Counted from the first letter of the stretch, positions 5,539 through 21,528 are shown. The stretch: 64,000 bases of DNA from an uncultured Acidobacteriota bacterium (GCA_963792515.1 CAWBWG010000007.1:48171-112170); one strand, 5' to 3'. The notes: a model not told the origin generated them from the letters alone. Translations and numbers: made by a program.

Positions 5539-5910
5539 TGGCCACCCCCCTTGAGTGCTTCCGTCTGCGAGACGTGAAACACGGTCGTCGTCCAGGGACG
5601 GCGGATAACCTTGCGCTCGCCAGTGTCCTGGTCGATTTCCTTGCTGCGGCAGTCAATGAACGTCACGACCTTGACGCCATGCTCGCCGCGACGCACGACA
5701 CGTCCTAGTGCTTTCCATGCGTCGAACGTGAACACGTTCTCTCGCGGCTTGATCTCAGACTCGGGAATACCTTTCGCCGCGAATCCCTGGAAGATCGCGG
5801 GAAAGTTAGTGAGCGATTGGCCGGAGACAGCGCGCGTGAGTGCTTCTTGTCGGTGACTGCGATTCCTTGCCTTGCGGATGGACGGTTGATAGATTCGGGC
5901 TAGCTTCCAT
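5535..5910 (-). pseudogene. ArdC-N-terminal-like (DUF1738-type ssDNA-binding) small protein, probably frame-broken
   Basis: ORF 5535..5735 reads FTFDAWKALGRVVRRGEHGVKVVTFIDCRSKE.., which resembles the ArdC N-domain. That frame stays open upstream (..QEALTRAVSGQSLTNFPAIFQGFAAKGIPESEIKPRENV) but has no start codon. An ATG at 5910 lies in another frame. Span is 376 nt = 3n+1. Its stop overlaps the AAA+ start (ATGA at 5535-5538). Confidence 0.45.
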
Positions 5911-6262
5911 TGTGACTCACCTCACTTTGGGAGTTAGGCTCTGTCGGATGTTGCTAGCATCCGGCGGAGCCGTTCTGTTTCTAACACTACATATGCCACA
6001 ATGTACGGAAACGTGTCAAGAGAAAAATGGCGACGCGCGAAAAATAGTTGAGAGCCGCGCAAACTTTCGCGCGATCTTACGGGGATTTTCGGCGGAGTTT
6101 ACGGAGCACCGTAAATGCGGTTTGCGCGCGAAATCAAAATGCGAAATGGCGTGCGGTCGGCGATGGCTGAGTTGTCCGGCGCGGGGGCATGGCGACGACG
6201 GGGACATCTCCGCGGCCTGCGAGCCACTTTCATTTTTTATTTTTTCCGCGAGCTTGGAGGTC

Positions 6263-7805
6263 CTACTTTGTTTTGCGTCTCAGCGGCTTCCCAACCGCAA
6301 GCAGAAAGATAGCGCTCTTGCCTTGCGCTTGCGGCGAAAAGAAGCTAATCACGTCATCGTCGAAGAAGGTCAGTCCGGTCGCACCCAGGTGCTGAGCATA
6401 CGCAGCCAGGTATATCCGACCGCCGATGGCGCCCGCCTCCAGCTGGACGGCGCGGTAGCCGCGGTTCCCGTAGCGCTCTAGGATGCGTTTCAAATCGGCG
6501 AGAAAGAAAATGTCTACGCAGGCGTCCGCCGGCAGCTCCTGCTGTAACCCCAAATAGCCGGCCTCGGCGCGGAAGTCGCCCTGTTTCAGAAGTTCCAAAG
6601 TGTTCCCCTCACGCCGGAAGAAGTAGGCGCCGGGCTTGAGCCCTGCACCGAATGCACGATCAGGTAAAGATCGTTGAGTTGGGTGCCGCGCGGTTCAAGG
6701 AAGTCGGCCAGAAGACCTCGCGTGGCGCGGTCTAAAATGGATGAGAGTTGTGCCGTTGTGATCGACGCCGTCTTATCGAACGTTCGAGTGGAGCCGCGGC
6801 GCAGGATGACCTGTTCGATCGTGTCCTTCGATTGTTCCTCTTCCGGCGGTGGCTGGAGGCGAACTTCCTCGCCCGCCGAAGCGGAAGATCGAAGCGTCGG
6901 TTGTTTTCTCACGCCACTGGCGGACTTCCTCTTCAGATTCAAGCGATGACGCGTCGTGCATCTGAAGCATCGCTGGATATTCGACCTCGCTCCGCGAAAG
7001 TGGGATCGTCTCCAGGCCGAGCGCCGGAGCCTCTCTGGGGCTGGCAGCGAACTCTCCGATGTGCGCCCGATCGGCACGAGGCAGAGTGAAACCTCACGCC
7101 GCGTATCGAGATCAAGCAAGCGGTTCACATCGGCGTCCACGAATCCAAGCACGATCTCAGCCGGCAGCCCCGAAGCCGCGGAAACGGCGAGCATATTCGC
7201 CAGCAGCGTGCCGTTGTCCCAACCGAAATGGCGATAGGTGCGCGCCTGGTACTTCCAAGCGTTCCGCCAGTACGTTCCGGTGCAGATTATCGTCGCGGGT
7301 GCGTGAGCCACCGCGTCTTCCTGTGCCGTCGCCTCGAGCCAGGTTCCCGCGAAAGTCACCTCTTCGCAGAAGCCGCAGCGATACATCCGCCGGATTGAAG
7401 TGATAGACACCGGCATCCAGGCCTGGGAGATCGCCAGCCACGACATACAGCTCGATCTCGTAGAGAGCTCCGGTGCAGGCTGCAGCGCGAAAGTAGATTT
7501 CTCCGTCTGGATATGCGCGCTGTTCGTAATCCCCGCCGAGAAATGGAGGATGCGCGCCAGGTCCTGAGGTCAGGGACCGCATCGGGCCGCGACGAGGGCA
7601 CTGGCTCTGAGATCGCGGAGAGCGCGGCCACCCCTGTTTGCGGCACGTCCCGCGGCAGGGGGACCGGCTCTATCGTCGGATAGACTTTGAAAGGCCGCGG
7701 CCGATTCGCCCAGTCCAGGAAATGACGATTGTTACGAATACTTGAGTATGAGTGCTTCGTGCCATCGTGGTACTGCCAAGTCGCCTCGATGTCGCGGTTT
7801 CTCAT
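6263..7805 (-). pseudogene. SagB/ThcOx-type (double nitroreductase-fold) dehydrogenase, shattered by at least 6 frame changes
   Basis: Recognisable pieces lie in alternating frames:
- MRNRDIEATWQYHDGTKHSYSSIRNNRHFLDWANRPRPFKVYP..
- LARILHFSAGIT
- QRAYPDGEIYFRAAACTGALYEIELYVVAGDLPGLDAGVYHFNPADVSLRLLRRGDFRGNLA
- EATAQEDAVAHAPATIICTGTYWRNAWKYQARTYRHFGWDNGTLLANMLAVSAASGLPAEIVLGFVD..
- MLQMHDASSLESEEEVRQWREK
- TIEQVILRRGSTRTFDK..
- LKQGDFRAEAGYLGLQQEL..YRAVQLEAGAIGGRIYLAAYAQHLGATGLTFFDDDV. Confidence 0.75.
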
Positions 7806-7988
7806 TACCGCGTCAGACTACCACCTGCAGCGGAACACGCGCGAACGAATGAACCGGCGACTGCGTATTGTGCCCGGATCACGGTGCACTCGGAAGTGCT
7901 CCCGCCAGCTGGGGCCCGCTCGGCGCTTGACGGCAACGCGGCTAGAAGTTCTGTTCGAGTAGGCGAAACCTATTCGTGGACCGCCACG

Positions 7989-8025
7989 GGCACTTGTCCG
8001 GTAAGGCGACTTACCGGGACTTTGG
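7989..8025 (+). repeat. array-specific hairpin repeat, copy A
   Basis: GGCACTTGTCCGGTAAGGCGACTTACCGGGACTTTGG. The stem GTCCGGTAAG/CTTACCGGGAC has one bulged G. It lies about 70 nt upstream of the 8098 gene. Confidence 0.8.
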
Positions 8026-8097
8026 ACCATTGCCGAACAAATAGCAGGCGTGGTCTAATTTGGGCCCTAGTCAGTAGACAATTCCAAGGTCCGGAAC

Positions 8098-8556
8098 ATG
8101 AACAAAAATGACATTCTCATCAATCTGTCCGAGTCTGAAAATACGAGATTTGGCAACGAAGAAGACTTTGCCCTTCAAACTCTTCCTCAGAAAGTCTTTT
8201 CGGCCATTTGGGCTGTCGAATCGGAAGTCAATAACGGCGGATTCTCCCAATACTTTTCCAACGACAGCGCGGAATCAGCATCATTCGTTGTGCAAGCTCT
8301 CGAAACAGTTGGTGCTCCGAGAACCGCGAATATTTGCAATCGCGCGATAGTCACGGCTTTTCCTGGTGGACTGCCAACGACGGTGGAAACTATACGCTCG
8401 GTCGCAGATAAATTCTCCAAAGAAATTCTCGCTGAGTTGGAGCCTCTAGACCAAGAGTTTTTCTCATACCCTCACAACTTGACAGACTTGCTTTTTACAT
8501 ATGTAAGTGCGCGCCCGGAGGAGTTCGGCCCACTGACGAAACCAGATGACGCTTAG
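8098..8556 (+). CDS. DUF4375 / DMP19-like domain protein (possible immunity-type protein)
   Basis: 152 aa. The core IWAVESEVNNGGFSQYFSNDSAESASFVVQALETVGAPRTANICNRAI matches the family hallmark as I recall it (NNGGF.QYF). The gene is low in GC. Confidence 0.6.
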   Translation: MNKNDILINLSESENTRFGNEEDFALQTLPQKVFSAIWAVESEVNNGGFSQYFSNDSAESASFVVQALETVGAPRTANICNRAIVTAFPGGLPTTVETIRSVADKFSKEILAELEPLDQEFFSYPHNLTDLLFTYVSARPEEFGPLTKPDDA

Positions 8557-8572
8557 ACGCTGCTGCTCAACT

Positions 8573-8647
8573 CCTGGTTAACGCGCTTACCGGAGAAGTG
8601 GAGTACCAGAATCCAGATGTCCGGTTAGGCGACTACCCGGACTTGAG
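8573..8647. repeat. array-specific hairpin repeat, inverted doublet B
   Basis: CCTGGTTAACGCGCTTACCGGAGAAGTG (a reverse-orientation unit), 15 nt, then GATGTCCGGTTAGGCGACTACCCGGACTTGAG (a forward unit). It sits between the stop at 8556 and the next gene. Confidence 0.75.
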
Positions 8648-8672
8648 AATCCATTCTTTTCATTTCGTCGGA

Positions 8673-9068
8673 ATGCGCATACGCTCGACTGCCGTGCCGC
8701 CCTACATAAAACCTATTCCATTACTCACTTCTCTACTATTTTGGGGCTATGTCGTCTGGGCGTGGGTTGTTTGGCGCGGATCGGCCGAAACCGTTCGGCC
8801 GAGATGGAGAGCAATCACAGTGGTTGCAGGGCTATATTGCGCCACAGCATCTACTATTCTTAATGCGTTTATGTTTGTCCATGCCGTCATCACTGGAGGC
8901 TACCCTTTCTATCATCCAGTGGAGCTGTTCTGTATTCGCGTCGGCAGCCTTACGGCCTTGCTCGGAGTCACGTGCTCGATTATTGGAAGAGGGAAACCCA
9001 GACTCCACATCGCCGTAATCTCGGTCCTGAACTTCCTGGTCTGGTTCGCGGACGCGATGGCGCAGTAG
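8673..9068 (+). CDS. small integral membrane protein, hypothetical
   Basis: ORF 8598..9068. The first 25 codons are translated repeat B, so the ATG at 8673 (MRIRSTAVPPYIKP..) is preferred. About four hydrophobic segments. Confidence 0.5.
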   Translation: MRIRSTAVPPYIKPIPLLTSLLFWGYVVWAWVVWRGSAETVRPRWRAITVVAGLYCATASTILNAFMFVHAVITGGYPFYHPVELFCIRVGSLTALLGVTCSIIGRGKPRLHIAVISVLNFLVWFADAMAQ

Positions 9069-9084
9069 GCTTCTGCCCTAATTC

Positions 9085-9160
9085 CTGAATAACGCGTAAA
9101 TCGGACATGAGGAGTGCTGGTACCGCAGTGTCCGGTAAGGCGACTTACCAGGCACTTGGT
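9085..9160. repeat. array-specific hairpin repeat, inverted doublet C
   Basis: CCTGAATAACGCGTAAATCGGACATGAG .. CAGTGTCCGGTAAGGCGACTTACCAGGCACTTGG, lying between convergent genes. Confidence 0.75.
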
Positions 9161-9173
9161 AACGAGGGATTCT

Positions 9174-9836
9174 TCATGACACCCATGTGCTGCGGCGATC
9201 AATAACATGCCACACGCCGCCTGTCCTGCGCATTAGAACGTACTCGCCACTACCACACAATCCCCCGCAAAAGTGGTCAACGTACAGTAGTGCCTCGGTC
9301 TTCCTCAGATTTAGCCCAACGTGCGAGACAACAAAATACCCAAAATTGTTCGGGAATCTCGCTTCAAAGTCGTTTGTTTTAGTCCATAAGATGTCGCTCG
9401 GGTTAACGAAAACCGCCCGAGCCCCGCTTGGCAGACGCAAGTTTGCGCTGATGTTTGTCGAAAATACGCTGTTCAGGAAGAAACTGGTTCGGGTAATTCG
9501 TGATGATTGTGCAAACCAGGCGTCTGAGACGGAACTCCATCGCGATTTCAATGATTGTCCAAACCAGGATAGTCTGTCGGGCCCATTTCCATCCACAGAA
9601 CAAATGAGACAAGCTGGATTGCGCAGAACGATAATCTCGATTGTGCGCCCTGCACCCCACTGGTCCATGTCGTGCAGGACTTCTTGCGAGAAAAATGCCG
9701 AGAGAACCTCACCCGTTTCTGCTTGTGTTCGCCTCTGCTCAACAGCAAAGAGGAGTCCAGCAACCGCAAGCAGGAGACCAATTCCAGTAGTCGCGTAAAG
9801 CACAATCCTTCTAAAGCGATTTAGGCTCATGGTCAT
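9174..9836 (-). CDS. hypothetical N-terminally membrane-anchored protein
   Basis: 220-aa ORF with a TM segment IVLYATTGIGLLLAVAGLLFAV. No recognisable domain. Confidence 0.5.
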   Translation of the reverse strand: MTMSLNRFRRIVLYATTGIGLLLAVAGLLFAVEQRRTQAETGEVLSAFFSQEVLHDMDQWGAGRTIEIIVLRNPACLICSVDGNGPDRLSWFGQSLKSRWSSVSDAWFAQSSRITRTSFFLNSVFSTNISANLRLPSGARAVFVNPSDILWTKTNDFEARFPNNFGYFVVSHVGLNLRKTEALLYVDHFCGGLCGSGEYVLMRRTGGVWHVIDRRSTWVS

Positions 9837-9884
9837 AAGACTGCAGCTTGGAGTGCCATTTTACCGCTCTTAGTCCTGTCAGTG

Positions 9885-9912
9885 CCTGATAAACGCGCAA
9901 ACCGGACAAGTG
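9885..9912 (-). repeat. array-specific hairpin repeat, copy D
   Basis: CCTGATAAACGCGCAAACCGGACAAGTG. Its reverse complement CACTTGTCCGGTTTGCGCGTTTATCAGG aligns with units A-C. Confidence 0.7.
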
Positions 9913-9917
9913 AAGTT

Positions 9918-10094
9918 TTAGCCGAGGGTCTTGGCATTGAAGGTGGCGAGTTCGTCATCTTCCACGGTAAAGCTGATCTCGATTGGTTTGCAGCATACCT
10001 CGCAGTCTTCGATGTAGGTTTGGCGGCCGACCGACAAGTCCAACACCATCGAAATTTCTTCCCCACAATATGGACAGGTGAATTCGTGTTCCAC
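9918..10094 (-). CDS. CPXCG motif-containing cysteine-rich small protein
   Basis: GTG start at 10094 gives a 58-aa protein: VEHEFTCPYCGEEISMVLDLSVGRQTYIEDCEVCCKPIEISFTVEDDELATFNAKTLG. The upstream part of track ORF 9918..10337 is Arg-rich and reads through repeat E. Confidence 0.75.
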   Translation of the reverse strand: MEHEFTCPYCGEEISMVLDLSVGRQTYIEDCEVCCKPIEISFTVEDDELATFNAKTLG

Positions 10095-10154
10095 TGAACG
10101 AGAAGATACTGCAATCGATCCGGCAGGACAACGGAAGCAGCAGTCGGCCAAGTG

Positions 10155-10219
10155 CCTGATTAACCTGCAACCGGACAAGTGCCAGCTGACTCCGCCTACG
10201 GGGCGTCTCCGGAAGTTGC
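10155..10219. repeat. array-specific hairpin repeat, copy E with a degenerate partner
   Basis: CCTGATTAACCTGCAACCGGACAAGTG (reverse complement CACTTGTCCGGTTGCAGGTTAATCAGG), followed by GGGGCGTCTCCGGAAGTTGC. Confidence 0.6.
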
Positions 10220-10290
10220 AAGCTCCATTAGGGACCCTTCGGTTGTGGAACGGTACCTGTCGAGGTGCGCGGAAACGTGGTACCAGATTC

Positions 10291-10974
10291 TTAGCAGAAC
10301 TTCGCGATAGCCCGGTAGGTTGCTTCGACGTGCTCAATTGAATTGGCTATAAACGGAAGCACTGATTGTCCGCCCTCGCGAAACCTAAAATCCACCCACG
10401 TCGTGACTTTAGTTGTGGCCACGCCGTTAGGCACCGGTAGTTGGGTTGTCGGGTCAATTGGAACGCCCATTACTTTGACATCGCCAGTAAAGGTCACTCC
10501 AGATCCCCACGATACCTCACCGCTCCCAGGCCGCGTGACCGTGACGCGTCGGGATTCCGTTCTGCTTTGTTCCACGAGGTCTTGGTGCTTGTTTTTATTG
10601 TTGAGGGCGTTGAACTGGCCAAGCCAAGGATCTCGGAACGGCTGCAGTGATTCGATGATTTCGAAGACGGGCTTGCAATTCGCTGCTAGTCCCGGATAGT
10701 CGTGCCCCATCACCTGCGCAAACTGGGTCGCATTGTGCTGGATCGGAAAGTACAGCCGGCGCGGTGTCCCCCCGGCTTTGCAGAATGCCTCATGCAACTC
10801 TTGGGCTAAATAATCAAGACACGAACGAAGGTCTTCGAAAATGTGTTTGATCTCGACCTTGAGGTCTTTGCGGACGACCTGTTCATGCAGCGACGCTTCG
10901 TAGGCTGCCTTCAGCTGAGCAAAATCCCCGCGCGACTTCCGGAGCAGGGCTTCGATACTCGTTTTACGTCTCAT
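10291..10974 (-). CDS. hypothetical protein
   Basis: 227-aa ORF with non-biased composition. No domain recognised. Confidence 0.5.
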   Translation of the reverse strand: MRRKTSIEALLRKSRGDFAQLKAAYEASLHEQVVRKDLKVEIKHIFEDLRSCLDYLAQELHEAFCKAGGTPRRLYFPIQHNATQFAQVMGHDYPGLAANCKPVFEIIESLQPFRDPWLGQFNALNNKNKHQDLVEQSRTESRRVTVTRPGSGEVSWGSGVTFTGDVKVMGVPIDPTTQLPVPNGVATTKVTTWVDFRFREGGQSVLPFIANSIEHVEATYRAIAKFC

Positions 10975-11113
10975 CTATCCCAAGTCCTCTGCGGAACTAC
11001 GGCAGGCTTGAATATTGCTCCAGGAGATGAGCGCCAGAAATTCACTTCGTCCGCGGCAACTTTGGACGCGTGCAATCGGAACCAATCATAATCGGTGACC
11101 GCGACAAAGAAAT

Positions 11114-12094
11114 TCATCGAGCGACTCTCAGCAAAACGGCGTTGCGGTGAAAGTCAAGAAATTGTCGCTGGCCCTCAGTGAAGGTTCCGACGTTGATCAG
11201 CCGCTCGGTCTCGACTCCCATACTCTGCAACGAAGGTTTGTGAGCGACCGGCGAGATGATGAGAGTTCCGGAATCCTCAAACCCGATAAATCCGCGGTCG
11301 AACAAATGGTCGATACTAGGCGTCAAGAGTAGGCCGTTCTCGCCATTGAGACGCTCTTCGTTTGAGGAATCCCGCCAGGGCTTGCAGTGGCTGGCCAGAA
11401 GGTGAATCGGATTATCAACACCCGTGATGCGGCAGCGGGTTTCAATTCGCATAACACGCTGCTTAAAAAGGCCTTGGCCACGCCGGGCCCGCACAATCGC
11501 CTCTCTGTCGGTCTCTTTCACGGATGTATCGCTTTCGACTTGTTGTTCGAGCTTGCGTTCCCAAACGTCCAGGTCGTCACCCGTCACGATTCTGCCACTT
11601 TCAAGGGCGACAGGAGACTCGGCAGCGGCGATCAGTGAGCGTGCCTCTTCTCCGATCAAACCGGCGAGGACCTCCGCGAAGCTCTGAGACAGCTCTGTCA
11701 AATAGATTGACTGGATGCCGTTTCCGTTAGGCTGGAGCGGTGAGTAGCGATCCGGCAAAACAGCTCTCAAAACCCCCATGTGATCTTTGGGGCGGATTTT
11801 GTTCAAGACCTGAGAAAACGAAACGTTCACTCTCCATCCGATATTTTCCCAATTCTGCCCCACAGAGCCAAACTCAGTTGGTTTCGGACACTCCCAGCAA
11901 TAGGATTTGGCGATTCCGATGGCGGCGACTCGAGTATCTGCGAAAGAAAAGATCAGGTCGCCCGGCGAAACCTCTCGCATCGACTCGTAGAATGGATTGC
12001 GAGCGCCGTTAGCGTTGCGTTTTGGAGACCAGAGATAGCCGCCCGCGATCTCTTGGCGGAATGTTTGATTCTGGTTGACCCACCAATAACGCAT
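11114..12094 (-). CDS. HNH endonuclease (HNH_2-type) with an N-terminal PUA/EVE-like module; candidate modification-dependent restriction enzyme
   Basis: The ATG at 12094 (MRYWWVNQNQTFRQEIAGGYLWSPKRN..) is preferred over the 12280 extension. The C-terminus reads RCRITGVDNPIHLLASHCKPWRDSSNEERLNGENGLLLTPSIDHLFDRGFIGF, an HNH_2-like pattern. Confidence 0.7.
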   Translation of the reverse strand: MRYWWVNQNQTFRQEIAGGYLWSPKRNANGARNPFYESMREVSPGDLIFSFADTRVAAIGIAKSYCWECPKPTEFGSVGQNWENIGWRVNVSFSQVLNKIRPKDHMGVLRAVLPDRYSPLQPNGNGIQSIYLTELSQSFAEVLAGLIGEEARSLIAAAESPVALESGRIVTGDDLDVWERKLEQQVESDTSVKETDREAIVRARRGQGLFKQRVMRIETRCRITGVDNPIHLLASHCKPWRDSSNEERLNGENGLLLTPSIDHLFDRGFIGFEDSGTLIISPVAHKPSLQSMGVETERLINVGTFTEGQRQFLDFHRNAVLLRVAR

Positions 12095-12307
12095 CCCGAC
12101 TCCGTGCGTCGAAGGAAGCAAGGATTTCCATCTCGGGCTCTCGGCCGACTTTGGAGAATACACTACATGAACTCTTGGTGGACACATGTAGGGCAGCAGT
12201 GAAAGACACCGATGTTCGACTTGTCCGGCCGACAGAACCGCACGGCTGCTGATCCTCCATACAGTGCGGCAGAGTAGCACGACCGTTAATATCCGCCCGC
12301 CTGTATA

Positions 12308-12990
12308 ATGGCCGTCGTGAAGCTCGAACAGATCGAGGAGTTACTGGCGGCGGAAGAGTCCGAAACGTTGGAGCGAAAGCAGGGCCTGGACAGAGAGGGC
12401 CTTTGCAAATCGATGATCGCTTTCGCAAATGACATGTACGGACGCGGTTGTGGCTGGGTGATCGTTGGGCAGGCACCGGATAAATCCTTCGCTGGTCTTC
12501 AGGTGGGAGACGACGAAGCGCAGCGGATCATTTCAGACATCGCGAGAGACCGATGCACGCCAGCTATTCCCGTGTCTGTTGAATGTTTCCTGAAAGATGG
12601 TAAGAGGCTCGCAATCGTCGAAGTTCGCGCGAGTCCTGCGCGGCCTCATTTCGCCGGTAAAGCGTGGGTACGGATGGGCAGCACCACCCGTCAAGCCACG
12701 GACGCTGAGATTATTCTTCTCCGGGCGGTTGAGGAGAATCGCAAGATCGCTATACTGAAACGATGGTTCGACGAAGGCAAGACTACGGTTGTTCTCTGGC
12801 AAATGGCCGCACCGGGTCAAGACTTCGCGCGGTCACCTGGGTACAGCAGGTAAAACTGTTGGAAGTCAATCAGAACTGGATCGTGGTTTACGCCGGCAGC
12901 ACGAGGCGCGCTTTTCCATACGATGAATTTAACGTCGGCTGGGATCCGGAGCAAGACCTTCCCCAGATCCGATACCACGGTGGACGGTAG
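12308..12990 (+). pseudogene. AlbA_2 (Schlafen-type) DNA-binding domain protein, probable frameshift near 12825-12835
   Basis: ORF 12308..12853 reads EESETLERKQGLDREGLCKSMIAFANDMYGRGCGWVIVG.. . ORF 12763..12990 continues plausibly as VTWVQQVKLLEVNQNWIVVYAGSTRRAFPYDEFNVGWDPEQD. Span is 683 nt = 3n+2. Confidence 0.6.
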
Positions 12991-13046
12991 CTGGAGCTTA
13001 GGTCCCATCGTTCGGCGGAGTCTCGAATCGACGGCGGCGCTTATGG

Positions 13047-13316
13047 TCAGATATGACCAAATAGGTCCGACAGGCTCTTCCTCAGTCCCTTGGCGATCTT
13101 CTCGATATTCACGAGCGACACGTTCCTGATCCCGCGCTCGACGCCGCTGTAGTACGTCCGATGCAACCCGCATCGCTCCGCAGCCTCTTCCTGATTGATC
13201 TTCTGCTCTTCGCGTATGCGGCGGATCGGGCGGCCGCAAACGGCTGCAGACACTCTAGTGGTATCGCGTCCGAACTGCGACCGACGATGATTGCTGTCAG
13301 AAGAACGCGCGACCAA
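13047..13316 (-). CDS. XRE-family helix-turn-helix transcriptional regulator
   Basis: ..IRRIREEQKINQEEAAERCGLHRTYYSGVERGIRNVSLVNIEKIAKGL.. Confidence 0.75.
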   Translation of the reverse strand: MVARSSDSNHRRSQFGRDTTRVSAAVCGRPIRRIREEQKINQEEAAERCGLHRTYYSGVERGIRNVSLVNIEKIAKGLRKSLSDLFGHI

Positions 13317-13328
13317 GAACGCAGGATT

Positions 13329-13544
13329 TCACAGGCGCGACATGAGTTTTGAGATGGTCATGCCGAAAGCAGAGGCGAGTAGTTCGAGATTGCGAATACA
13401 AATTTCTTTTCTGCCATTTTCCAGATCCGAGATGAAACTGCGGTCCATACCGACATACTCCGCCATGTAGACCTGTGTCCACTCCCTCTGCTTGCGAAGG
13501 GTGCGTATCCGCTTTCCAAATCGGACACAGATATCGCTCGACAC
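13329..13544 (-). CDS. XRE-family helix-turn-helix transcriptional regulator
   Basis: FGKRIRTLRKQREWTQVYMAEYVGMDRSFISDLENGRKEICIRNLELLASAFGMT. Confidence 0.8.
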   Translation of the reverse strand: MSSDICVRFGKRIRTLRKQREWTQVYMAEYVGMDRSFISDLENGRKEICIRNLELLASAFGMTISKLMSRL

Positions 13545-13607
13545 GCCTCCAATTATGGCTGTAGGCTTTCGCCGATAAATCGGCTATAGCCGTCAGAGCT
13601 TGCAAGA

Positions 13608-14579
13608 ATGGTGCACGAACCCAAACAACCGCAAGGCCATGGGAATCGGTGGCTCAGAGGTTTGGTGATCGGGCTTGCGGTCGGCGCTGTGCTGGCCTAC
13701 GTCGTGATGTCACGCGCGCGTCGCCCCAACGCGCCTCTCGGGATTGCCGTCGAGAAGTATATTCCTCCACAGACCCTGCGGCTTTTAGACGGGAACATGC
13801 AAGATTTCGGCGAACTCCAGATACTGACGAATGGAGGCGTCATGCTAAGTCTTTGGGACGCGGAGAACGAGCCATTAATAGATTTTGCGGCGATCGAGAC
13901 TGTCATGCTCACCATCCACCAAAGACAGTCGGAATCGTCGCACCTAAGCTATCTTGTCGTCCTCATGGAGCCGGAGCCCAGTTTTTCGATGAGCACTCCG
14001 GACGGAAAACATTTTTCTACACCAAGCAAGAGCCGGGACCGACACTCCTTTCCCGCGGCACTTGCGATCTCGGCTTATCACGGTTTTTTTCCGGAAAAGC
14101 CGGAAACAAGGCTTGATGAAGTCGTGCCTTCTGAAGACCTGCGGCTGGTGAACAGGAATCATGAGCTGCTCGCGGTATTAGGGCTATCGGAGGCGGGGGA
14201 ACCTTCCATAGCCTTGACTCACAGTGACGGGCGCTTGCTCGCAGTTTTGTCTATCACTTCGCCTGACCCTTTGGGGCTAGGCGGGCCTAAAGAGTGGCCC
14301 ACGTTAGTTCTGTACGACAGGCACGGCAGCCAGCGTGTAGAAGTGGACTTGGGACCGGATGCAACGCCCGCGGTTATGATTTCAGAAAAATCGGACCCGA
14401 AAAATCGAACGGATTTGGGGGCGTACGCACTTGATCCGCAATCTGGCAAAGAAGTTTCTGTAGGACTTTTCGACCACAAGGCGGCCGCTATTCCTTGGCT
14501 GTCACATGCGATGCGCCGCATCCCCCTGCCTGTGGTGGTCGTTGACGAGCGCGGCCAAGCCCTTTGGAGGACGCATTAA
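13608..14579 (+). CDS. hypothetical membrane-anchored protein
   Basis: 323-aa ORF with a TM segment LRGLVIGLAVGAVLAYVVM. Lower-GC region, no domain recognised. Confidence 0.5.
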   Translation: MVHEPKQPQGHGNRWLRGLVIGLAVGAVLAYVVMSRARRPNAPLGIAVEKYIPPQTLRLLDGNMQDFGELQILTNGGVMLSLWDAENEPLIDFAAIETVMLTIHQRQSESSHLSYLVVLMEPEPSFSMSTPDGKHFSTPSKSRDRHSFPAALAISAYHGFFPEKPETRLDEVVPSEDLRLVNRNHELLAVLGLSEAGEPSIALTHSDGRLLAVLSITSPDPLGLGGPKEWPTLVLYDRHGSQRVEVDLGPDATPAVMISEKSDPKNRTDLGAYALDPQSGKEVSVGLFDHKAAAIPWLSHAMRRIPLPVVVVDERGQALWRTH

Positions 14580-14633
14580 GGAGCCGATTTCTTCATGTCA
14601 AGTGCTCAGGCCTCGGTCGATTTGTGAAGGTTG

Positions 14634-15023
14634 ATGAAGGCTAACAGCGCGATGAAAAGGAGTCCGCTAGTAAAGGTTGTATCGCTACTCGGAGGCTTAT
14701 TAGCCCTTTGGAGCGGGCCGCGCATCTGGGAGTATCTAAACGAATCTGTCATCCAGCATGACAAGTTGGCGACGGTTTATAGCCGCGACTGGGCGAACGG
14801 CGAATACAAGCAGTGCACCAACGTCAACGCCAAAACCGAAGAGCCATATCTGCAATGCGACGATTTAACTCTCACTGAGAAAGGGAAGGTATTTAAAGTC
14901 CGCTTTTACGGTCAGACTTACGTTGCTGAAAACCGAATCGAGACTCTTCATTACTGGAGATGTCGCAAGAACGGCTACGAAGACCCTGCAATCACCTGCG
15001 ATGCAGTTAAGAAGCCTGAGTGA
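14634..15023 (+). CDS. hypothetical secreted/anchored small protein
   Basis: ORF with an ATG at 14634 and a hydrophobic N-terminus VKVVSLLGGLLALW. Confidence 0.45.
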   Translation: MKANSAMKRSPLVKVVSLLGGLLALWSGPRIWEYLNESVIQHDKLATVYSRDWANGEYKQCTNVNAKTEEPYLQCDDLTLTEKGKVFKVRFYGQTYVAENRIETLHYWRCRKNGYEDPAITCDAVKKPE

Positions 15024-15298
15024 AACCTCGCGATTGAGAGTTGCGCGAAGTGTGGTTCTGGGGCCGGACAAAGATTAAAACCGAGCCGTGCGTCTCGAGA
15101 GCAACCAACGCTGAAACTTTCGGGGGTGCCGTTCTGCGGACTACATGTCGGTACTATCCTGACCTGAAACATTGCGGGAAATCGTCAGGTGAGAACAAAG
15201 GGTGATTGCTGCGGGCCAGGTTAGGCATTCAAGCGGACATAGCCGAGGATTATCCGGGAACCTTGAGACAGGCAGCAACACGACGTTATGAAAGAGCA

Positions 15299-15562
15299 AT
15301 GGAGGCCGTCATGGGAATCGCGTTCTTGATCGTTGCCGCTGCCATCATGTTCCACCGTTCGGCTTGGGAGATATGCCTACTCCTTATCGGATACTGGAGT
15401 TTCACGCGGCTCGATCAATGGCTGGCCAAACGAACAAAACGAAAAGAGATTGATTACGAAACAGATGGGTGGGAAACAGACCCTTCTGACCCGGGGTACG
15501 AAACAAAGGGTAATCTCGCACGCGCGAAGCTCGCAGGTGGAGGGGCAAATCATTGTGACTAG
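15299..15562 (+). CDS. hypothetical small membrane protein
   Basis: ATG at 15299 within ORF 15206..15562: MEAVMGIAFLIVAAAIMF..ICLLLIGYWSF. Confidence 0.35.
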   Translation: MEAVMGIAFLIVAAAIMFHRSAWEICLLLIGYWSFTRLDQWLAKRTKRKEIDYETDGWETDPSDPGYETKGNLARAKLAGGGANHCD

Positions 15563-15921
15563 GATTGCGGAGCTACTCAGACGGACGGCGTGAGCGGCCA
15601 TCGTCGAGACTCACGCTTAAACTCGAACGAATTCGGCCAGAAGTTATAAGTTGGCTGCTGAGTGCTACGGCCAACGCTTTAGATCGCGGGTGGCTCACCG
15701 GTCGCCGGTACCCGGAGAGTCGCTGTCAACTCTTCCGCTTTTGGCCGGTAGGAACCGAGCGATTCGATAATCGCGAGCGCGGTTTTCACGTCGAGCAACA
15801 TATGTAGCGACCAGCGTGTCGAGCGCGTTCCAGACATTCCGATGGAGGCCGCAATTCGCGGGGCCTGCTAGGCGCTTCGATTCTCATTCGATCCGTCGGG
15901 ACATCGCAGTACAATCTGCTT

Positions 15922-16636
15922 GTGTCAAATGAACTCGCAAAGGCTCGGCGCAGTGGGGAACCTATTGGCAGCGAGAATGGGAAGCTGTCCGCGCGTGACG
16001 TACAGCGCGCGTTCGACGGCACGATCGCGTCGGCCTGTGCGCTCGGGATCAGCCTCGAAGACTTCCTCGAACTGGTTCGGTTGGCCCGAACCAGCGATCC
16101 GAGAGCTGCGCGATTCCTTGAAGCCTGGGAGACTCTCGACGCCTCCGAACAGCAGTCTAGCGGAGCGGCCGACGCGGTGTGCGGACAGATTGGGCTCAAT
16201 CCCGCCGAGCTGCTCCGGACCGTGGCGCACGAGGCGATCAACTTCTCGAAGTGCGTAGCCGAGACTGTGACCGCTCTGGCCCTGCCATCTGTAGTCGCAT
16301 GCAGCGAGTTCAGGATGGCTCTGACTGACGACGGAACTGCCGACCGCAAGATGCTGTTCCAGCACACGGGCTTTTTGCCGACGCCCAGGGGCTGGCGCAC
16401 CAACGTCTTCATCGCGCAGAACGGTCAGTCAGCCGGGACGCCCGTATCGTTGCGGCACCGCAGCCAGAACATACGATTCGACAGTTGGCTGAGGCGTTCA
16501 ACAGGTCGCGCGGGATGCCCTCCACCGCACGGATGCCGGCGCCGATGGCAGACCCTACGACTCTCCTCGGTGCGACACCCGCTCGCGAGGATGTCGCTTC
16601 CTTCGACACTGACTGCGAAGACGACGATGGCACATA
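15922..16636 (+). pseudogene. hypothetical (phage/plasmid-like) protein, probable frameshift near 16420
   Basis: MSNELAKARRSGEPIGSENGKLSARDVQRAF.. reads well up to ..FIAQNGQS. Another frame then continues as VSRDARIVAAPQPEHTIRQLAEAFNRSRGMPSTA..DVASFDTDCEDDDGT to a stop near 16634-16636. Confidence 0.3.
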
Positions 16637-17473
16637 GGCGGGAGCCCAGAGAGAGGAGCCTTCCGTGCGCAGCGAGATGAACTGGAACCGCGTGCGCCGA
16701 GCTGGGAAACTGCTCCGCGACGAGGTAGCGGGGGATCTGCCGCCGATGCTGCGTGGCCTAGCGTGGCAACAATTCCAGCAGCTACCGTTGGCGCGCGCTG
16801 CCTGCCGGCTGATGGAGCTCCTGGAGCCGCCGCGATCGGCAACGCCGGCCTCTATTGCCGGAGCCCCCACCGCCCTGCCGACGCAGGCCTTTTCGCGGAC
16901 ATCCCATCGCTCGATCAACGTGGAACCGCCGAGAAAATTTAGCCGAACTGTGTAAGCGCCACGCTGACCGCCTCCCATCCAGCCCTTGGCTACTTCCCAT
17001 CCTGGCTGGCCGAGCGCGCGACCTCGCGCTTCACCCGGACGCGCACGGTTCCGATCGCGGCCGTCGAATGCGCCGCATCAAGGGCGGCAAACATGTTCAG
17101 CGCCGCTACCGTGAAAAGGGTTGGCACCCGCTCGCGTCGGTGCGGAAGGCTTGGGGATTGAGCGCGGAACGCCCGGCGATGGACGCGGACGAGTCAACCG
17201 CGGCCAAGCTATGACGAAACGTCGTCTAGGCCTACTTCGCCCCGTATGCGCGGTGAAACAGGACTGCGCGAGGTTTCCGGGTGACCCATTACCGTAGGTG
17301 TGGCCACCTGTCCGGGATGAGTGAGACGATGTCTTAGGGCATGCCGCGGCCTTCGGCACGTCAATTTTCGAAGATGTGGCTGACACGGTTCGTGAGCCCG
17401 ATCCGGCCTGGAACGGCGCCCAGGTTCACTGGACCGCGGGGGATGTAATCGTGCGGACTCTATGCCTCGCGAT

Positions 17474-17626
17474 CTAGCTTTGTGGCGGCGTCTGCGGCGC
17501 CGGCGGTGCGCTCGGTGATGCGGGAGTCGCCGGCGGGCGTCGGTACGGTGATTTCTCGGGCGCCGGTTTGACCTTGTCCCGTTTCGGCTTCTTTACCTCG
17601 CGGCCTCGCTTATCTCGGTTGCCCAT
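17474..17626 (-). CDS. small Lys/Pro-rich basic protein (50 aa), hypothetical
   Basis: Not in the ORF track because it is under 60 aa. ATG at 17626 preceded by GAGGAG. Sequence MGNRDKRGREVKKPKRDKVKPAPEKSPYRRPPATPASPSAPPAPQTPPQS; TAG stop codon at 17476-17474 on the minus strand. Confidence 0.35.
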   Translation of the reverse strand: MGNRDKRGREVKKPKRDKVKPAPEKSPYRRPPATPASPSAPPAPQTPPQS

Positions 17627-17810
17627 GACTCACTCCTCGTCGTGCTTGATGTGATCCCATGATACTCGCGATTCCGAAGGCCTGCCCCACGGGACTCCGG
17701 AGAGTGGGTGAAGCGCAGCCAAATAACGGAATAGCTTCCGTCGCGATTCAGCCATCAGAACCGCGATGTGAAACCGCCTGTAAGCTCTGATGGAGAACAT
17801 CGCGACATTC

Positions 17811-17999
17811 TGGAACCGAATTCGGATCCTCTTCGTTCTTCGTCGTTTATGAGTTTATATACCCTGGAACTTGCGGCGAAACGCTTCTGGAACTTGGAAC
17901 CTGTGAAGTTCCACGTTCCACCGACCGTTCCAACTCAATCGGAACCTCTCAGGTAATTGATTTCGTTCGAGTTTCGCTCAAAAGTACGTCCGGGTTCCA
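17811..17999. repeat. TGGAAC/GTTCCA site array (iteron-like; candidate replication origin or operator)
   Basis: Perfect TGGAAC at 17811, 17865, 17888 and 17895. Perfect GTTCCA at 17908, 17915, 17927 and 17994. A CGGAAC variant is at 17940. The core 17888-17920 is a 33-nt inverted repeat, TGGAACTTGGAAC-ctgtgaa-GTTCCACGTTCCA. An AT-rich stretch cgtcgtttatgagtttatata lies at 17841-17861. Confidence 0.75.
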
Positions 18000-18008
18000 G
18001 CCCAACCG

Positions 18009-19007
18009 CTACCCGACCTTCTTGAACGTCCCATTGTCGCACCTTACAAGTATGCCGAGGCTCAACGTGGCCTTCGTGAGTCGGGACAAGCTTGAGCGTG
18101 GCACGGTTTTATCCGCGATGTCTTCAAATTTGAACTCTTTCGGCAGTTTGTCCCAATAATTTCTTTGAGCCTGCGAGAGGCTCCGAAGCAAATTGAATTG
18201 ATCCGCGGTGACTTGCTCAAAGCCAGCGAGTTGATCGTCCTTGTCCGCGACGGGTCGAATCAAGATTGGGTGCATTTCTCGCCCGCGAACGATGCCATTT
18301 ATCACTCGAACCTCGTCGTCCAGCATGTCGATCCCCAGCCGTGCGTCGGATCGGTTCACTATATCTAGCGAGCCGGACACTTCTTCGAGCCAATCCCTCG
18401 CGTCCGAAAGCAAGTCTGCCTTTACGCCCCTCCGGTCCTTCTTGCGAAGATTGAACGTACCGAGGATTGCCCCGTGCGGAAACCTAGCCAGGATTTCTCT
18501 CAATTTTCGAAAGAGCCTTAGGACCTCCGGTTTTTTCGTGGTATCCAGTTGGAAGAGCATTTCCACGGGATCTACCAGAACGATTGCATTGGGCTTCGAT
18601 CTGAGCGCCCTCTCGATCAAGGCCAGTTTCGAATCGTGTCCCGGCTCAGTTGTGGCCTTCAACAGTGCCTCTGTACTCGATTCGGTTAGGTAGTCACGCT
18701 CTAGGTACACATCCAGTTCACTGGGCACGCGAGGTACGGGGACTCCGAGTCTGCCCGCGATAACTTCGATCGTTTTCTTGTAGTCTGGACCGGGAGTTTC
18801 GCAGTCGAAGACGATGACAGGCCGTCGCTGCACCCTCCGGCCGCACCAGTTTAGGCCGTGGACTAGTCTGACGGTGAGATCAGCTAAAACCGGGGATTTG
18901 CCCATCCCAAAAGGGCCGGCAAAGGCGGCTAGCTCACCTTCGCGAAGCAATCCGTCGATCAACTCAGGTCGTTCTTCACGGTTCCGCTCAAAAAAGGATC
19001 TGGCCAC
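18009..19007 (-). CDS. RecA-fold AAA ATPase (AAA_25 / RepA-like)
   Basis: ..ELAAFAGPFGMGKSPVLADLTVRLVHGLNWCGRRV (Walker A), PVIVFDCE, NAIVLVDPVEMLF. A GTG start at 19007 is preferred, because the first 56 codons of track ORF 18009..19175 overlap a clear HTH gene in another frame. Confidence 0.7.
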   Translation of the reverse strand: MARSFFERNREERPELIDGLLREGELAAFAGPFGMGKSPVLADLTVRLVHGLNWCGRRVQRRPVIVFDCETPGPDYKKTIEVIAGRLGVPVPRVPSELDVYLERDYLTESSTEALLKATTEPGHDSKLALIERALRSKPNAIVLVDPVEMLFQLDTTKKPEVLRLFRKLREILARFPHGAILGTFNLRKKDRRGVKADLLSDARDWLEEVSGSLDIVNRSDARLGIDMLDDEVRVINGIVRGREMHPILIRPVADKDDQLAGFEQVTADQFNLLRSLSQAQRNYWDKLPKEFKFEDIADKTVPRSSLSRLTKATLSLGILVRCDNGTFKKVG

Positions 19008-19008
19008 G

Positions 19009-19185
19009 TCACTTGAACCTTGAGAGAAACTGACGAACAACGTCGGGGTCGAACAATAAGCGACGGCAAATTCGAGTAGGTTTGAGCGCACCTTTTCGGA
19101 CCCAGGCTCTGACTGTATGGGGCGATACTCGAAGTCTGTCAGCGAGATCACGCAAGGTGAGCAGTTGGGGAACACCGTCAGACAT
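19009..19185 (-). CDS. HTH_17 / excisionase-AlpA-like DNA-binding protein (58 aa)
   Basis: My translation from the ATG at 19185: MSDGVPQLLTLRDLADRLRVSPHTVRAWVRKGALKPTRICRRLLFDPDVVRQFLSRFK; TGA stop codon at 19011-19009 on the minus strand. Confidence 0.7.
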   Translation of the reverse strand: MSDGVPQLLTLRDLADRLRVSPHTVRAWVRKGALKPTRICRRLLFDPDVVRQFLSRFK

Positions 19186-19188
19186 CGC

Positions 19189-19359
19189 TCAATCCTTTGT
19201 TTTCAGCCTGGCTTCGACCGCCTCAACAGGAATGCGCCAACGCTTTCCGACCTTGCGGCCCACCAGCTTTCCAGTCCAAAGCAGCGAGTACAAATAATCG
19301 AGCCCGACGCCGAGTCTGCGGGCCGCTTCGATTGCGCTCATTTCTGTTTGTTTTGTCAT
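19189..19359 (-). CDS. HTH_17 / excisionase-AlpA-like DNA-binding protein (56 aa)
   Basis: ATG at 19359 preceded by AAGGAGG: MTKQTEMSAIEAARRLGVGLDYLYSLLWTGKLVGRKVGKRWRIPVEAVEARLKTKD. Confidence 0.7.
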   Translation of the reverse strand: MTKQTEMSAIEAARRLGVGLDYLYSLLWTGKLVGRKVGKRWRIPVEAVEARLKTKD

Positions 19360-19584
19360 ATTCCTCCTTGACAGTCGCGATGCTACTCCTTACCCTAATG
19401 CTCGTGCAACGTGGCCATATCAAGACCGTAACAGAACTTGCCGTTCTGGTGCCCTGCGATGCGAAGGACAAAGACGGCTTAGCGACATTTCTGTCGGAGT
19501 TGGCCGGAACTCAGCCGGTCCGAGTTGTTACTCTGGGTGATCTCAAGTCCGATCCACGCAAAATTTAAGCAAGCGCTGAGTACG

Positions 19585-20193
19585 ATGTGGGACTACGAAC
19601 GGGTGCAGTTCGAAGCGGTGGTCGCCTTACTCAGCGCGTTGCGAAGAAAAGACAAGCTGGCAATCAGCCGCGCCCGAGGCTTCGTCACGAACGCACTCGC
19701 GCTCAAGCGAGAAGGGGACAGGAGACTCGGCATTAGCCCGGCGCTAGATGATGACCTAGATTTTGGGCGGGTTCTTATTCATGTTTTTGGCCTGGAGCCG
19801 GGACAGGAGAAGGAAGCCATTGAGCGGTGGAACGGTTACCGTCACGGTCCGAAAGCGGATGCAAACCATCGGTGGCTACTATCGCAGCTAATGTCTGAAG
19901 CGCTCGATTCTGTGCGTTTGGTGCTCTGGTCGTCGGGAAAGCATCTTCGACCTGCGCTCTACTGCCCTCAGGCCAAGGCCGCTCTTTACGCGATGCTCTT
20001 GATGAAGATCGCCGCTGGGCGGGGATGGGGAGTGTGTCCGTATTGCGGTCAGTTCTTTGCTCAAAAGCGTTCCGACCAGAATTACTGCACGATTGCACAT
20101 CGTGAGGCGCATCGAGTAGCACGGTGGCGTGCAGCGAGAGTATCGCAATCGAAACAGAGAGGCGGGTCATATGGCACTCGTAAAACGCGGTAG
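19585..20193 (+). CDS. hypothetical protein with a C-terminal CPYCG..C..AH zinc-ribbon-like motif
   Basis: ATG at 19585 within ORF 19525..20193. The C-terminus reads WGVCPYCGQFFAQKRSDQNYCTIAHREAHRVARW. It overlaps the integrase start by 23 nt. Confidence 0.5.
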   Translation: MWDYERVQFEAVVALLSALRRKDKLAISRARGFVTNALALKREGDRRLGISPALDDDLDFGRVLIHVFGLEPGQEKEAIERWNGYRHGPKADANHRWLLSQLMSEALDSVRLVLWSSGKHLRPALYCPQAKAALYAMLLMKIAAGRGWGVCPYCGQFFAQKRSDQNYCTIAHREAHRVARWRAARVSQSKQRGGSYGTRKTR

Positions 20194-21400
20194 GACGTGG
20201 CACACACAATTCTACGTTAACGGTGCTCGCTACCGACAGTCGCTTCGCACAACCGACTGGCGCGAAGCGCTTCAGCGCGAGAAAGAACTGATCTCGCAGG
20301 CGAGTGTCGGGAAGCTCGCGCCGTCGAGTCAGCAGTTCGCCCGACTCGCCTTTTCCGTGGCGGCGGATCGATACATCGAAGATCGTAAGGCCTATCTGGC
20401 GCCTCGAAGCGTGCGTACAGAACAAGAGCGCCTGAAGGGTCTGCGATTATTCTTTGGTGCGACGCCGTTAACCCGCATCAGTTCGGACTCGGTTCGAGAA
20501 TATGTCGCCAAGCGCAAGAACGCGGGACTGAGCAATCGCACGGTGAATATGGAGACTGGCTGCCTTGCTCGCGTTCTAAAGAGGGCGAAACGTTGGCATC
20601 TGATCGCAGAGGATATAAAGCCGCTGCCCGAGGGACGGAGCGTGGGTAGGGCATTGACGCATGAAGAGAAAGTGAAGCTACTAAAAGCTGCTGCTCGCAA
20701 ACCAGAGTGGATGCTTGCGCGGCTTGCTGCAATCTTGGCACTGAATACCACGATGCGAGGGTGCGAGATCCGCGGACTACGATGGTGCGACGTCGATTTC
20801 ATAGAACGGACACTCACCGTGCGCCGAAGTAAAACACAGGCGGGGGAGCGCGTGATTCCGCTCAACGGCGACGGGTGGGGAGCGATTCTCGAGTTACGGG
20901 AGAGAGCAAAACAGCTTCTCGGCGTCGAGCCGCGCTCCCAGTGGTTTGTATTTCCTCATGGGGAGGGGCAAGGGCCCGTTACCCACACGAAAACGAGACC
21001 TGGGCCAAAATCGGTAACTGTGAAACCCGACCCAACCAAGCCTATGATTTCGTGGCGGACGGCATGGCGAAAAATTGCCAAGGAAGCCGGACTCCCCGGG
21101 CTGCGGTTTCATGATCTCCGGCACCACGCCGTGACAGAGCTTGCCGAGGGGCAGGCCAGCGATCAAATAATACGGTCGATTGCGGGGCACGTTTCACTTC
21201 GAATGCTAGAGCATTATTCTCATATCAGGTTGGACGCCAAGCGCAAGGCGCTTGATGCTCTCTCAGGTGGACCACCGGACTCAGTTACGACACAACTCAC
21301 GACACAAATTTCGAATCGATCGCCGCAAGCGATTGAAAAGAATGGCGGGGCCGACGGGGTTCGAACCCGCGACCTCCTGCGTGACAGGCAGGCGTTCTAA
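20171..21400 (+). CDS. tyrosine recombinase / phage-type integrase
   Basis: The ATG at 20171 gives MALVKRGRTWHTQFYVNGARYRQSL (typical integrase N-terminus). Catalytic pattern: CEIRGLRWCDVDF (Arg), LRFHDLRHHAVT (HxxR), GHVSLRMLEHYSHI (Tyr). The last 58 nt of the ORF run into tRNA-Asp on the opposite strand. Confidence 0.9.
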   Translation: MALVKRGRTWHTQFYVNGARYRQSLRTTDWREALQREKELISQASVGKLAPSSQQFARLAFSVAADRYIEDRKAYLAPRSVRTEQERLKGLRLFFGATPLTRISSDSVREYVAKRKNAGLSNRTVNMETGCLARVLKRAKRWHLIAEDIKPLPEGRSVGRALTHEEKVKLLKAAARKPEWMLARLAAILALNTTMRGCEIRGLRWCDVDFIERTLTVRRSKTQAGERVIPLNGDGWGAILELRERAKQLLGVEPRSQWFVFPHGEGQGPVTHTKTRPGPKSVTVKPDPTKPMISWRTAWRKIAKEAGLPGLRFHDLRHHAVTELAEGQASDQIIRSIAGHVSLRMLEHYSHIRLDAKRKALDALSGGPPDSVTTQLTTQISNRSPQAIEKNGGADGVRTRDLLRDRQAF

Positions 21401-21420
21401 CCAAGCTGAACTACGGCCCC
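21343..21420 (-). tRNA. tRNA-Asp (anticodon GTC)
   Basis: The reverse complement folds as GGGGCCG TA GTTC AGCTTGGTTA GAAC G CCTGC CTGTCAC GCAGG AGGTC GCGGG TTCGAAC CCCGT CGGCCCC G CCA. Confidence 0.9.
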
Positions 21421-21452: not shown

Positions 21453-21528
21453 TGGTGGGCGGTCAGCGATTTGAACGCTGGACCTTCCCGGTGTAAGCGG
21501 GATGCTCTAACCGCTGAGCTAACCGCCC
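21453..21528 (-). tRNA. tRNA-Val (anticodon TAC)
   Basis: The reverse complement folds as GGGCGGT TA GCTC AGCGGTTA GAGC A TCCCG CTTACAC CGGGA AGGTC CAGCG TTCAAAT CGCTG ACCGCCC A CCA. Confidence 0.9.

Follow-up and report, generated by a model that had tools for sequence, protein, structure and literature searches.

A probable 24.7-kb site-specific integrative island in the tRNA-Asp(GTC) gene of an uncultured Acidobacteriota bacterium

Genes and features at the tRNA-Asp locus

Acidobacteriota are among the most abundant bacteria of soil, and to our knowledge their mobile elements are almost unstudied, because few of these organisms have been cultured. The stretch analysed here, called the window below, comprises 64,000 nt from the genome of an uncultured soil bacterium of the Acidobacteriota (GCA_963792515.1 CAWBWG010000007.1:48171-112170; assembly completeness 78.5%). 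Beside a tRNA-Asp(GTC) gene it carries genes for a tyrosine integrase, two small helix-turn-helix (HTH) proteins and an ATPase, which belong to what is very probably a genomic island. Coordinates are those of the window, except where prefixed by C7, the contig, or by L001, the stretch of C7 that includes the left flank. An initial annotation had read this locus as a compact element of about 4 kb at the tRNA-Asp 3' end, and all of the features that it named are present where it placed them. Those that define the integration event are:

1..21387: portion of the island within the window, delimited by a 45-nt direct repeat and the context of both copies
20171..21400 (+ strand): tyrosine integrase gene (int), 409 aa in the integrated state; Pfam Phage_integrase, 2.4e-24
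21343..21387 (+ strand): attR identity block, 45 nt; starts at the tRNA-Asp 3' end with the CCA and takes in all of the anticodon loop (21381-21387)
21343..21420 (- strand): tRNA-Asp(GTC) gene (ARAGORN), integration target, regenerated intact

Boundaries and attachment sites

The initial annotation found no duplicate of the tRNA 3' end, and inside the window there is indeed none: exact-seed and repeat scans give no tRNA-related match of at least 10 nt. When the search for a direct repeat is carried leftward beyond the window edge, blastn against the whole assembly returns a perfect copy of 21343-21387, 45 nt long and on the same strand, at C7:44795-44839 (L001 8796-8840), and no further copy of the repeat in the genome. 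This left copy, attL, begins 3,375 nt ahead of position 1 of the window, and the island reaches up to it, 3,330 nt beyond the window edge. Its length is 24,718 nt from repeat to repeat, with 24,673 nt between the repeats. Beyond attL the chromosome continues leftward with a CsoR/RcnR-like gene and a Cus-type efflux operon.

With a perfect 45-nt copy left of the window, the element is therefore an island of 24.7 kb and not one of about 4 kb, and the 4-kb block of integrase, HTH and ATPase genes is its conserved integration/replication core. We consider it very likely that the element is a genomic island, integrated site-specifically into the single tRNA-Asp(GTC) gene and working in the way proposed below. 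It has the features by which the Islander scheme recognises such islands, namely a full-length tRNA gene (tDNA) with a displaced 3' fragment in direct orientation, a tyrosine integrase, a length within 2-200 kb and absence from the same site in related genomes. Joining the sequences across the repeats gives a predicted attP junction of ...AAGCGATTGAAAAGAA + 45-nt core + TACTCCGCCGCG... and a predicted attB junction of ...CCGGATTGAAT + core + GCAGGCGTTC....

The integrase gene and its reading into the tRNA

The catalytic residues R196, K221, H314, R317, H340 and Y349 of the integrase are invariant in an alignment with 7 homologues (A1). A housekeeping recombinase of the XerC/D type, on which the initial annotation would have given way, is ruled out by NCBIfam: the Xer models score 39-58 bits against cut-offs of 220-335, and the XerC and XerD equivalogs 42.2 and 39.4 bits against 335 and 330. 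As a separate observation from the same alignment, some integrases of the clade (L017, L018 and L019) carry a 29-aa CxxC...C..C insertion directly before the RFHDLRHH box (columns 310-338), which is absent from the window integrase.

As the initial annotation had noted, the int reading frame ends 58 nt within the tRNA-Asp gene, at a TAA (21398-21400) that is the antisense of the tRNA D-loop and is the usual stop across the clade. The final 19 int codons and the stop are antisense tRNA; in the integrated form the last four codons and the stop are supplied by the host tRNA. The att core spans int codons 392-406 and thus lies within the reading frame, and the C-terminus is changed by integration: the reconstructed excised form has 417 aa and ends in ...RDSTPPRKTDGDTE, the integrated form has 409 aa and ends in ...RDRQAF, and the same holds in the sister species (metagenome-assembled genome (MAG) MFD01633.bin.1.196; G013). 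The altered tail is 4 aa (RQAF) in the integrated and 12 aa (STPPRKTDGDTE) in the excised form; integration therefore swaps the last few residues only.

We compared 80 related loci, nearly all from Acidobacteriota, and placed 63 integrases in a tree. An integrase reading frame that runs at least 50 nt antisense into a tRNA is found in 34 of the 80. In the 32-member subclade that includes the window integrase (SH-aLRT of its halves 94 and 87; of the next node up, which takes in L068, 86), 23 members have a neighbouring tRNA gene, and all 23 overlap it by 50-70 nt, although the targets are of five kinds (Asp-GTC, Val-GAC, Ala-CGC, Ala-TGC and Pro-CGG). Nine members have no tRNA gene beside them: seven of these stop within, or read across, a tRNA 3' fragment of 21-47 nt, and another, L052, reads through a whole tRNA-Val. 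Outside the subclade, five integrases overlap the tRNA and 13 stop short of it. Reading of int into the tRNA is a trait of the clade.

Candidate arm-type sites

The coding tail of int also holds one of two pairs of short repeats at the island ends:

21287..21307 (+ strand): P-arm pair of ACGACACAA repeats, spaced 12 nt, inside the int codons for VTTQLTTQ
C7:44994-45014 (L001 8995-9015), island left end: P' pair of ACGACACAA repeats, 154-174 nt beyond the core

The reconstructed attP contains four copies of the 9-mer ACGACACAA, all in one direction, as two pairs with 12-nt spacing. All four lie at the two ends of the island, about 76 kb of sequence contain no others, and the island of the sister species has the 9-mer at the same four positions. 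A pair of ACGACAC motifs is present in many clade members, at an equal distance from their own, differing tRNA genes. Elsewhere it is read in the frame xAC GAC ACA (Y-D-T) and here as ACG ACA CAA (T-T-Q); conservation is therefore at the DNA and not the protein level, and we reject GYxTKxxTK/VTTQLTTQ as a protein motif of the tail. The ACGACACAA pairs are probably arm-type integrase sites.

The insertion site in relatives

Occupancy of the site was assessed by searching 40 relatives with both flanks joined. In a congener, G009, the 87 nt that flank attL directly abut tRNA-Asp, with no integrase within 3.7 kb; short matches across the junction come from G007, G011 and G014. The initial annotation's reading of an integrative element at the tRNA-Asp 3' end is supported by the 45-nt att duplication together with congeners that are free of the island; the opposing case that it had foreseen, of relatives carrying the same genes at the same place with no att duplication, does not apply.

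We do not take G009 for a virgin empty site. Both the flank beside attL (L001 8709-8795 = C7:44708-44794) and the flank in G009 (L026 3621-3707) contain a degenerate arm-site pair, GTTACGTCGCAAACCACGTCAAAA, at the same distance from the tRNA, and the G009 flank, of about 90 nt, matches integrase residues 372-408. From this pair and this match we read this flanking sequence as a probable scar left by an earlier member of the family.

The same tRNA-Asp is occupied in other relatives by islands of about 9, 16, 25 and 35 kb, some with unrelated or broken integrases, and the site is an insertion hot spot. Next to it lies another tRNA gene:

21453..21528 (- strand): tRNA-Val(TAC), 32 nt from tRNA-Asp

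Between the two tRNA genes, 1-11 kb are inserted in several congeners (G002:C43, G006:C11, G008:C131, G014:C2). The tRNA-Val(TAC) gene may be a second integration target.

Genes of the conserved core

Leftward from int, the core comprises the following:

19380..20193 (+ strand): int partner gene, about 270 aa, ATG at 19380; C-terminal CxxC...C...H motif; stop overlaps the int start
19189..19359 (- strand): HTH_17/"excise" family protein, 56 aa; Pfam 3.7e-10; strong Shine-Dalgarno sequence
19009..19185 (- strand): second HTH_17 (MerR-like) protein, 58 aa; Pfam 6.5e-11; stop 1 nt before the ATPase GTG
18009..19007 (- strand): RecA-superfamily ATPase, 332 aa; Pfam AAA_25, 6.6e-16; C-terminal winged-helix-like part
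17811..17999: cluster of TGGAAC/GTTCCA hexamers, eight copies (four forward, then four reverse), with an AT-rich stretch; 8 in 189 nt against about 0.16 expected
17630..17800 (- strand): small open reading frame (ORF), 56 aa, at the left edge of the block common with the sister species, where it is 96% identical; no family match

The zinc-ribbon-like gene that the initial annotation saw upstream of int is present, but the ORF at 19525..20193 is the 3' part only of the 270-aa gene, which an extra T in an A4T3 run at about 19563-19566 splits into two frames. The gene is intact in a conspecific strain (L115, 99.2% identical) and in the island of the sister species; 20 nt separate its start from that of the divergent first HTH gene. 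More than 170 homologues of 250-270 aa are known from metagenomes of soil and peat and from Acidobacteriota MAGs. The protein has no match in Pfam, NCBIfam, PHROG or PADLOC, and its AlphaFold2 model, though a confident one (pLDDT 79.6), no fold match in the PDB.

Both of the tandem HTH_17 genes of under 60 aa are recovered as such by Pfam. "Double excisionase", the initial term for them, is a label and not a finding: the two proteins have no detectable similarity to each other, and at the NCBIfam "excise" cut-off of 28.8 bits the first passes (39.3) and the second falls just under (26.2).

The ATPase start can be read directly, as had been done in the initial annotation: a TGA (19011-19009), one base (c) and the GTG at 19007. 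Homologues of 330-350 aa favour this short start; more than 100 homologues, of 40-70% identity, are again from metagenomes of soil and peat and from MAGs of Acidobacteriota. The AlphaFold2 model (pLDDT 90.4) consists of a RecA-superfamily core, then a beta-rich part, then a helix-helix-helix-hairpin end that resembles a winged helix. There is no sequence match in the PDB. The best Foldseek matches are Rad51, RadA and PH0284 (E 1e-11 to 1e-9), and the top 50 are all Rad51, RadA, DMC1 or PH0284 with neither RepA nor DnaB among them. "RepA-like", the initial term for the ATPase, is likewise a label and not a finding.

Clusters of TGGAAC/GTTCCA also follow directly upon the ATPase gene in L110, L112 and L114 (5-9 per 300 nt against about 0.3 expected). 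The clustering was found in every locus checked, although the ATPases there are just 44-55% identical, and we regard the region as a candidate origin or ATPase binding site. The small ORF to its left is not homologous to the 56-aa ORF that occupies the same place in L110.

Exchange of the core between species

The sister species carries an island of 16.3 kb at the same site and between the same 45-nt repeats. The two cores (window 17635-21342) are 97.1% identical, and 100% identical over 18200-19400 (ATPase and HTH genes), and the 229 nt of the island's left end are about 95% identical, whereas the chromosomal flanks are only 72-90% identical. A core of 97% identity between flanks of 72-90% indicates recent horizontal exchange: on this comparison, the core has moved between the species recently. 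Identity of 100% in the core of species whose chromosomes differ by 10-28% shows that gene exchange is ongoing in these populations.

Comparison with L115 brings out a mosaic patch. Of the 145 mismatches between the window and L115, 89 fall in 19000-21000, while the rest of the 21 kb in common is about 99.9% identical. Over 19400-20600, L115 is 100% identical to the sister species, from which the source genome differs by 4-12%. The segment of int and the 270-aa gene is therefore a recombined patch.

The order of the core recurs across many Acidobacteriota contigs. There int is accompanied by a gene of 210-282 aa that overlaps its start; in the opposite direction follow HTH_17 genes (one or two) and AAA_25, and small ORFs come after a gap of some 0.65 kb. 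With this same order, L110/L111, L114, L115 and L118 carry other cargo (baeRF, TIR, PNP_UDP, restriction subunits, resolvase), and the family seems to ferry defence-type genes. The islands are an undescribed, recently exchanged family of a well-known kind, that of tRNA-integrated islands. Its 4-kb core is present on hundreds of soil and peat contigs, with toxin and defence cargo, and the present island defines for the family the exact ends and the two att sites, with candidates for the arm sites and the origin. For orientation, L118 1-2478 encodes TIR_2 and PNP_UDP_1, and L110 15198-16418 a baeRF-family protein.

Cargo and integrity of the island

Pfam and PHROGs scans covered most ORFs of at least 100 aa and selected small ORFs. 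The larger cargo regions within the window are:

245..3688 (- strand): RHS-repeat protein, N-terminal 1,147 aa; the C-terminal 735 aa are in another frame left of the window
3997..8026 (- strand): block common with the sister species at 89% nucleotide identity, encoding a serine resolvase, a clamp-loader-like AAA ATPase and a 514-aa nitroreductase
11114..12853: HNH_2 nuclease and Schlafen/AlbA_2 protein genes, divergent; Pfam; PADLOC HNH, 6.4e-24

The RHS gene has about 1,900 codons in three frames (window 245-3688 and L001 10116-12323) and directly downstream of it is a 225-aa gene with a weak DUF4943 match. Together the two are like a toxin/immunity pair carried at the left end of the island. 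The block at 3997..8026, in which resolvase and nitroreductase occupy several frames in the source assembly and are intact in the sister species, could be a separate module or a defence system not yet recognised. Elsewhere in the island, a family of 31-nt repeats is found at 7995, 8618 and 9129, near small genes in window 7989-10219.

A degraded prophage would account for an integrase next to a tRNA gene, an HTH protein of excisionase family and an XRE regulator. However, neither the tested island ORFs nor other members of the family have a Pfam or PHROGs match to virion genes (capsid, portal, terminase, tail) or lysis genes, and we reject this explanation as having next to no likelihood.

An integrative mobilizable element, whose excised form would be transferred by a conjugative system acting in trans through an unrecognised oriT or relaxase, is a further reading: many tRNA islands free of phage genes move in this way (PMC4383910), and several conserved backbone ORFs have no known function. 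Against it, no relaxase, coupling protein or type IV secretion system domain was found in the ORFs scanned, nor are there in these ORFs the genes by which integrative conjugative or mobilizable elements are defined, and we think this route of transfer very unlikely.

The state of the genes bears on whether this particular copy is still mobile. Frameshifts affect the 270-aa gene, the resolvase, the nitroreductase and the RHS gene in the source assembly, and may mean either that this copy is in part defective or that indel errors are present in the assembly. If the former, the island could be a fixed relic that has lost its mobility, and the older scar of the same family beside attL shows that decay does happen at this site. 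Yet the 45-nt repeats are perfect, and int, both HTH genes and the ATPase gene are intact and 97-100% identical to the copy in the other species. Moreover, an alignment of the window with L115 over 21 kb has 18 gap openings (23 gapped positions), of which two fall in core chromosomal genes outside the island, as fits assembly error in one or both assemblies. We consider a relic rather unlikely. Single-base indels relative to L115 were noted at 23074 and 23216, in a multihaem cytochrome gene outside the island, where they suggest indel errors in one of the two assemblies.

Proposed mechanism

The integration step and the layout of attP can be followed in the sequence itself. Recombination between attP and the tRNA gene was the work of a tyrosine integrase of heterobivalent type. 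The core of attP is the 45-nt tRNA copy from the anticodon loop to the CCA end, and the outcome is the intact tRNA at attR and the displaced 45-nt fragment at attL. The end of int has attP built into it, as a coding tail with two ACGACACAA repeats followed by the core. For excision, replication and the route of transfer we infer what follows.

The ACGACACAA pairs on both arms may serve as arm-type integrase sites. One or both of the HTH_17 proteins could act as excision-directionality factor, as activator of the leftward operon, or as both. Copying of the excised circle would begin in the TGGAAC iteron region and depend on the RecA-fold ATPase, with the iterons read by the C-terminal winged helix of that protein, and the 270-aa protein may be a family-specific regulator or an integrase cofactor. 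The remaining 20 kb or so would be exchangeable cargo: the RHS toxin, HNH/AlbA_2, the block of resolvase, AAA ATPase and nitroreductase, and small cassette genes.

Several observations weigh against this account of the island. Its G+C content, 56.6%, is scarcely different from the 57.7% of the genome. The exact attP-junction and attL-type patterns have 0 matches in JGI metagenome contigs. The fold matches of the ATPase are to recombinases and not to replicative helicases, and the protein has neither a primase nor a recognised initiator domain, nor a match in a plasmid collection. The roles given to the HTH_17 proteins, the ATPase, the iterons and the 270-aa gene are drawn from position and fold, and the frameshifts of the source assembly count on the same side.

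It is conceivable, if doubtful, that placing attP in the last 40 int codons is no mere compaction but makes a functional switch as in Mx8, in which the 417-aa integrase of the circle (ending in STPPRKTDGDTE) and the 409-aa integrated form would differ in activity or direction. In addition, int expression might be subject to feedback, either from integrase sitting on the coding tail of its own gene or from antisense read-through that enters tRNA-Asp. If the switch went together with a helper-dependent cycle like that of the phage-inducible chromosomal islands (PICIs), this would be the first family of satellite-type elements described for Acidobacteriota.

The corresponding route of transfer would be that of a phage satellite (PICI/P4-like): infection by a helper would trigger excision and replication, and helper capsids would package the island. 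The layout is PICI-like, in that int and the gene next to it lie to one side, and an HTH/xis-like gene, a putative replication ATPase and a candidate origin to the other, in divergent orientation (PMC6092414), and structural or lytic genes were not found in the tested ORFs; the family's sizes of 9-25 kb and its defence-type cargo are also consistent with a satellite. On the other hand, there is no primase domain, no homologue of terS, ppi or capsid-remodelling genes and no PHROG packaging match; the island, at 24.7 kb, exceeds the typical 12-15 kb; no helper is known; and other integrase lineages use the same tRNA-Asp site. We judge this unlikely; "satellite-like", the word of the initial annotation, is an analogy, and by "satellite" we would mean a possible route of transfer and not a classification.

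Comparison with known systems

As a tRNA-integrated island, the element belongs to the anticodon-centred ("A") class of Islander (PMC4383910): it has an intact tDNA with a displaced 3' fragment, a tyrosine integrase and an identity block from the anticodon loop to the 3' end. There is no difference in kind, the present case being one from uncultured Acidobacteriota and with an undescribed core module. Islander also allows ORFs such as the one seen here, since some integrases (Mx8, SSV) extend across attP (PMC4383910). A compact int-attP module for which several tRNA genes are targets could serve as an integration tool for Acidobacteriota.

With the Gram-negative PICIs (EcCICFT073; PMC6092414) the island has in common an int gene at its end, a divergent small HTH (AlpA-like) gene followed by a putative replication ATPase and a candidate origin, the lack of virion genes among the tested ORFs and accessory or defence cargo. 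It differs in having no primase domain and no recognised packaging or interference genes, in its larger size, in the lack of a known helper and in the 270-aa protein of no recognised family beside int. Of the features by which PICIs are defined (PMC6092414), a lack of structural and of lytic phage genes is found here among the tested ORFs, while the size of about 12-15 kb is not (24.7 kb; 16.3 kb in the sister species). The PICI order of int, regulator, divergent xis/alpA, pri-rep and ori has its analogue in the island, except for the primase domain, and the likeness seen is one of order.

In the archaeal "suicidal" integrases of SSV type, integration splits int into two halves, Int(N) and Int(C), that are inactive (PMC8371274). 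Here, by contrast, the catalytic domain and Tyr349 remain intact and the extreme tail alone is swapped, so that int is not split. The best phage matches of the window integrase, at about 25% identity, are the P22/HK542-type integrases (thrW), in which int is likewise followed directly by a tRNA-like attP. We do not count HK542/P22 as an equal case of overlap: int of HK542 stops 2 nt into attP, against 58 nt into the tRNA here.

The target of phage Mx8 is a tRNA-Asp gene too. In Mx8, attP lies within the stretch that encodes the integrase IntP, and integration gives the prophage int a new 3' end (Tojo et al. 1996; Magrini et al. 1999, as related in PMC4383910 and PMC6070905). Mx8 shares with the island an attP within the int reading frame, and among bacterial int genes that receive a changed 3' end through integration it offers the nearest precedent. 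The change in the island is far smaller: the Mx8 integrase loses a long C-terminal segment, whereas here the last codons only are exchanged, and by an element that is not a phage. The island is thus a natural test of whether a C-terminal swap in the manner of Mx8 matters.

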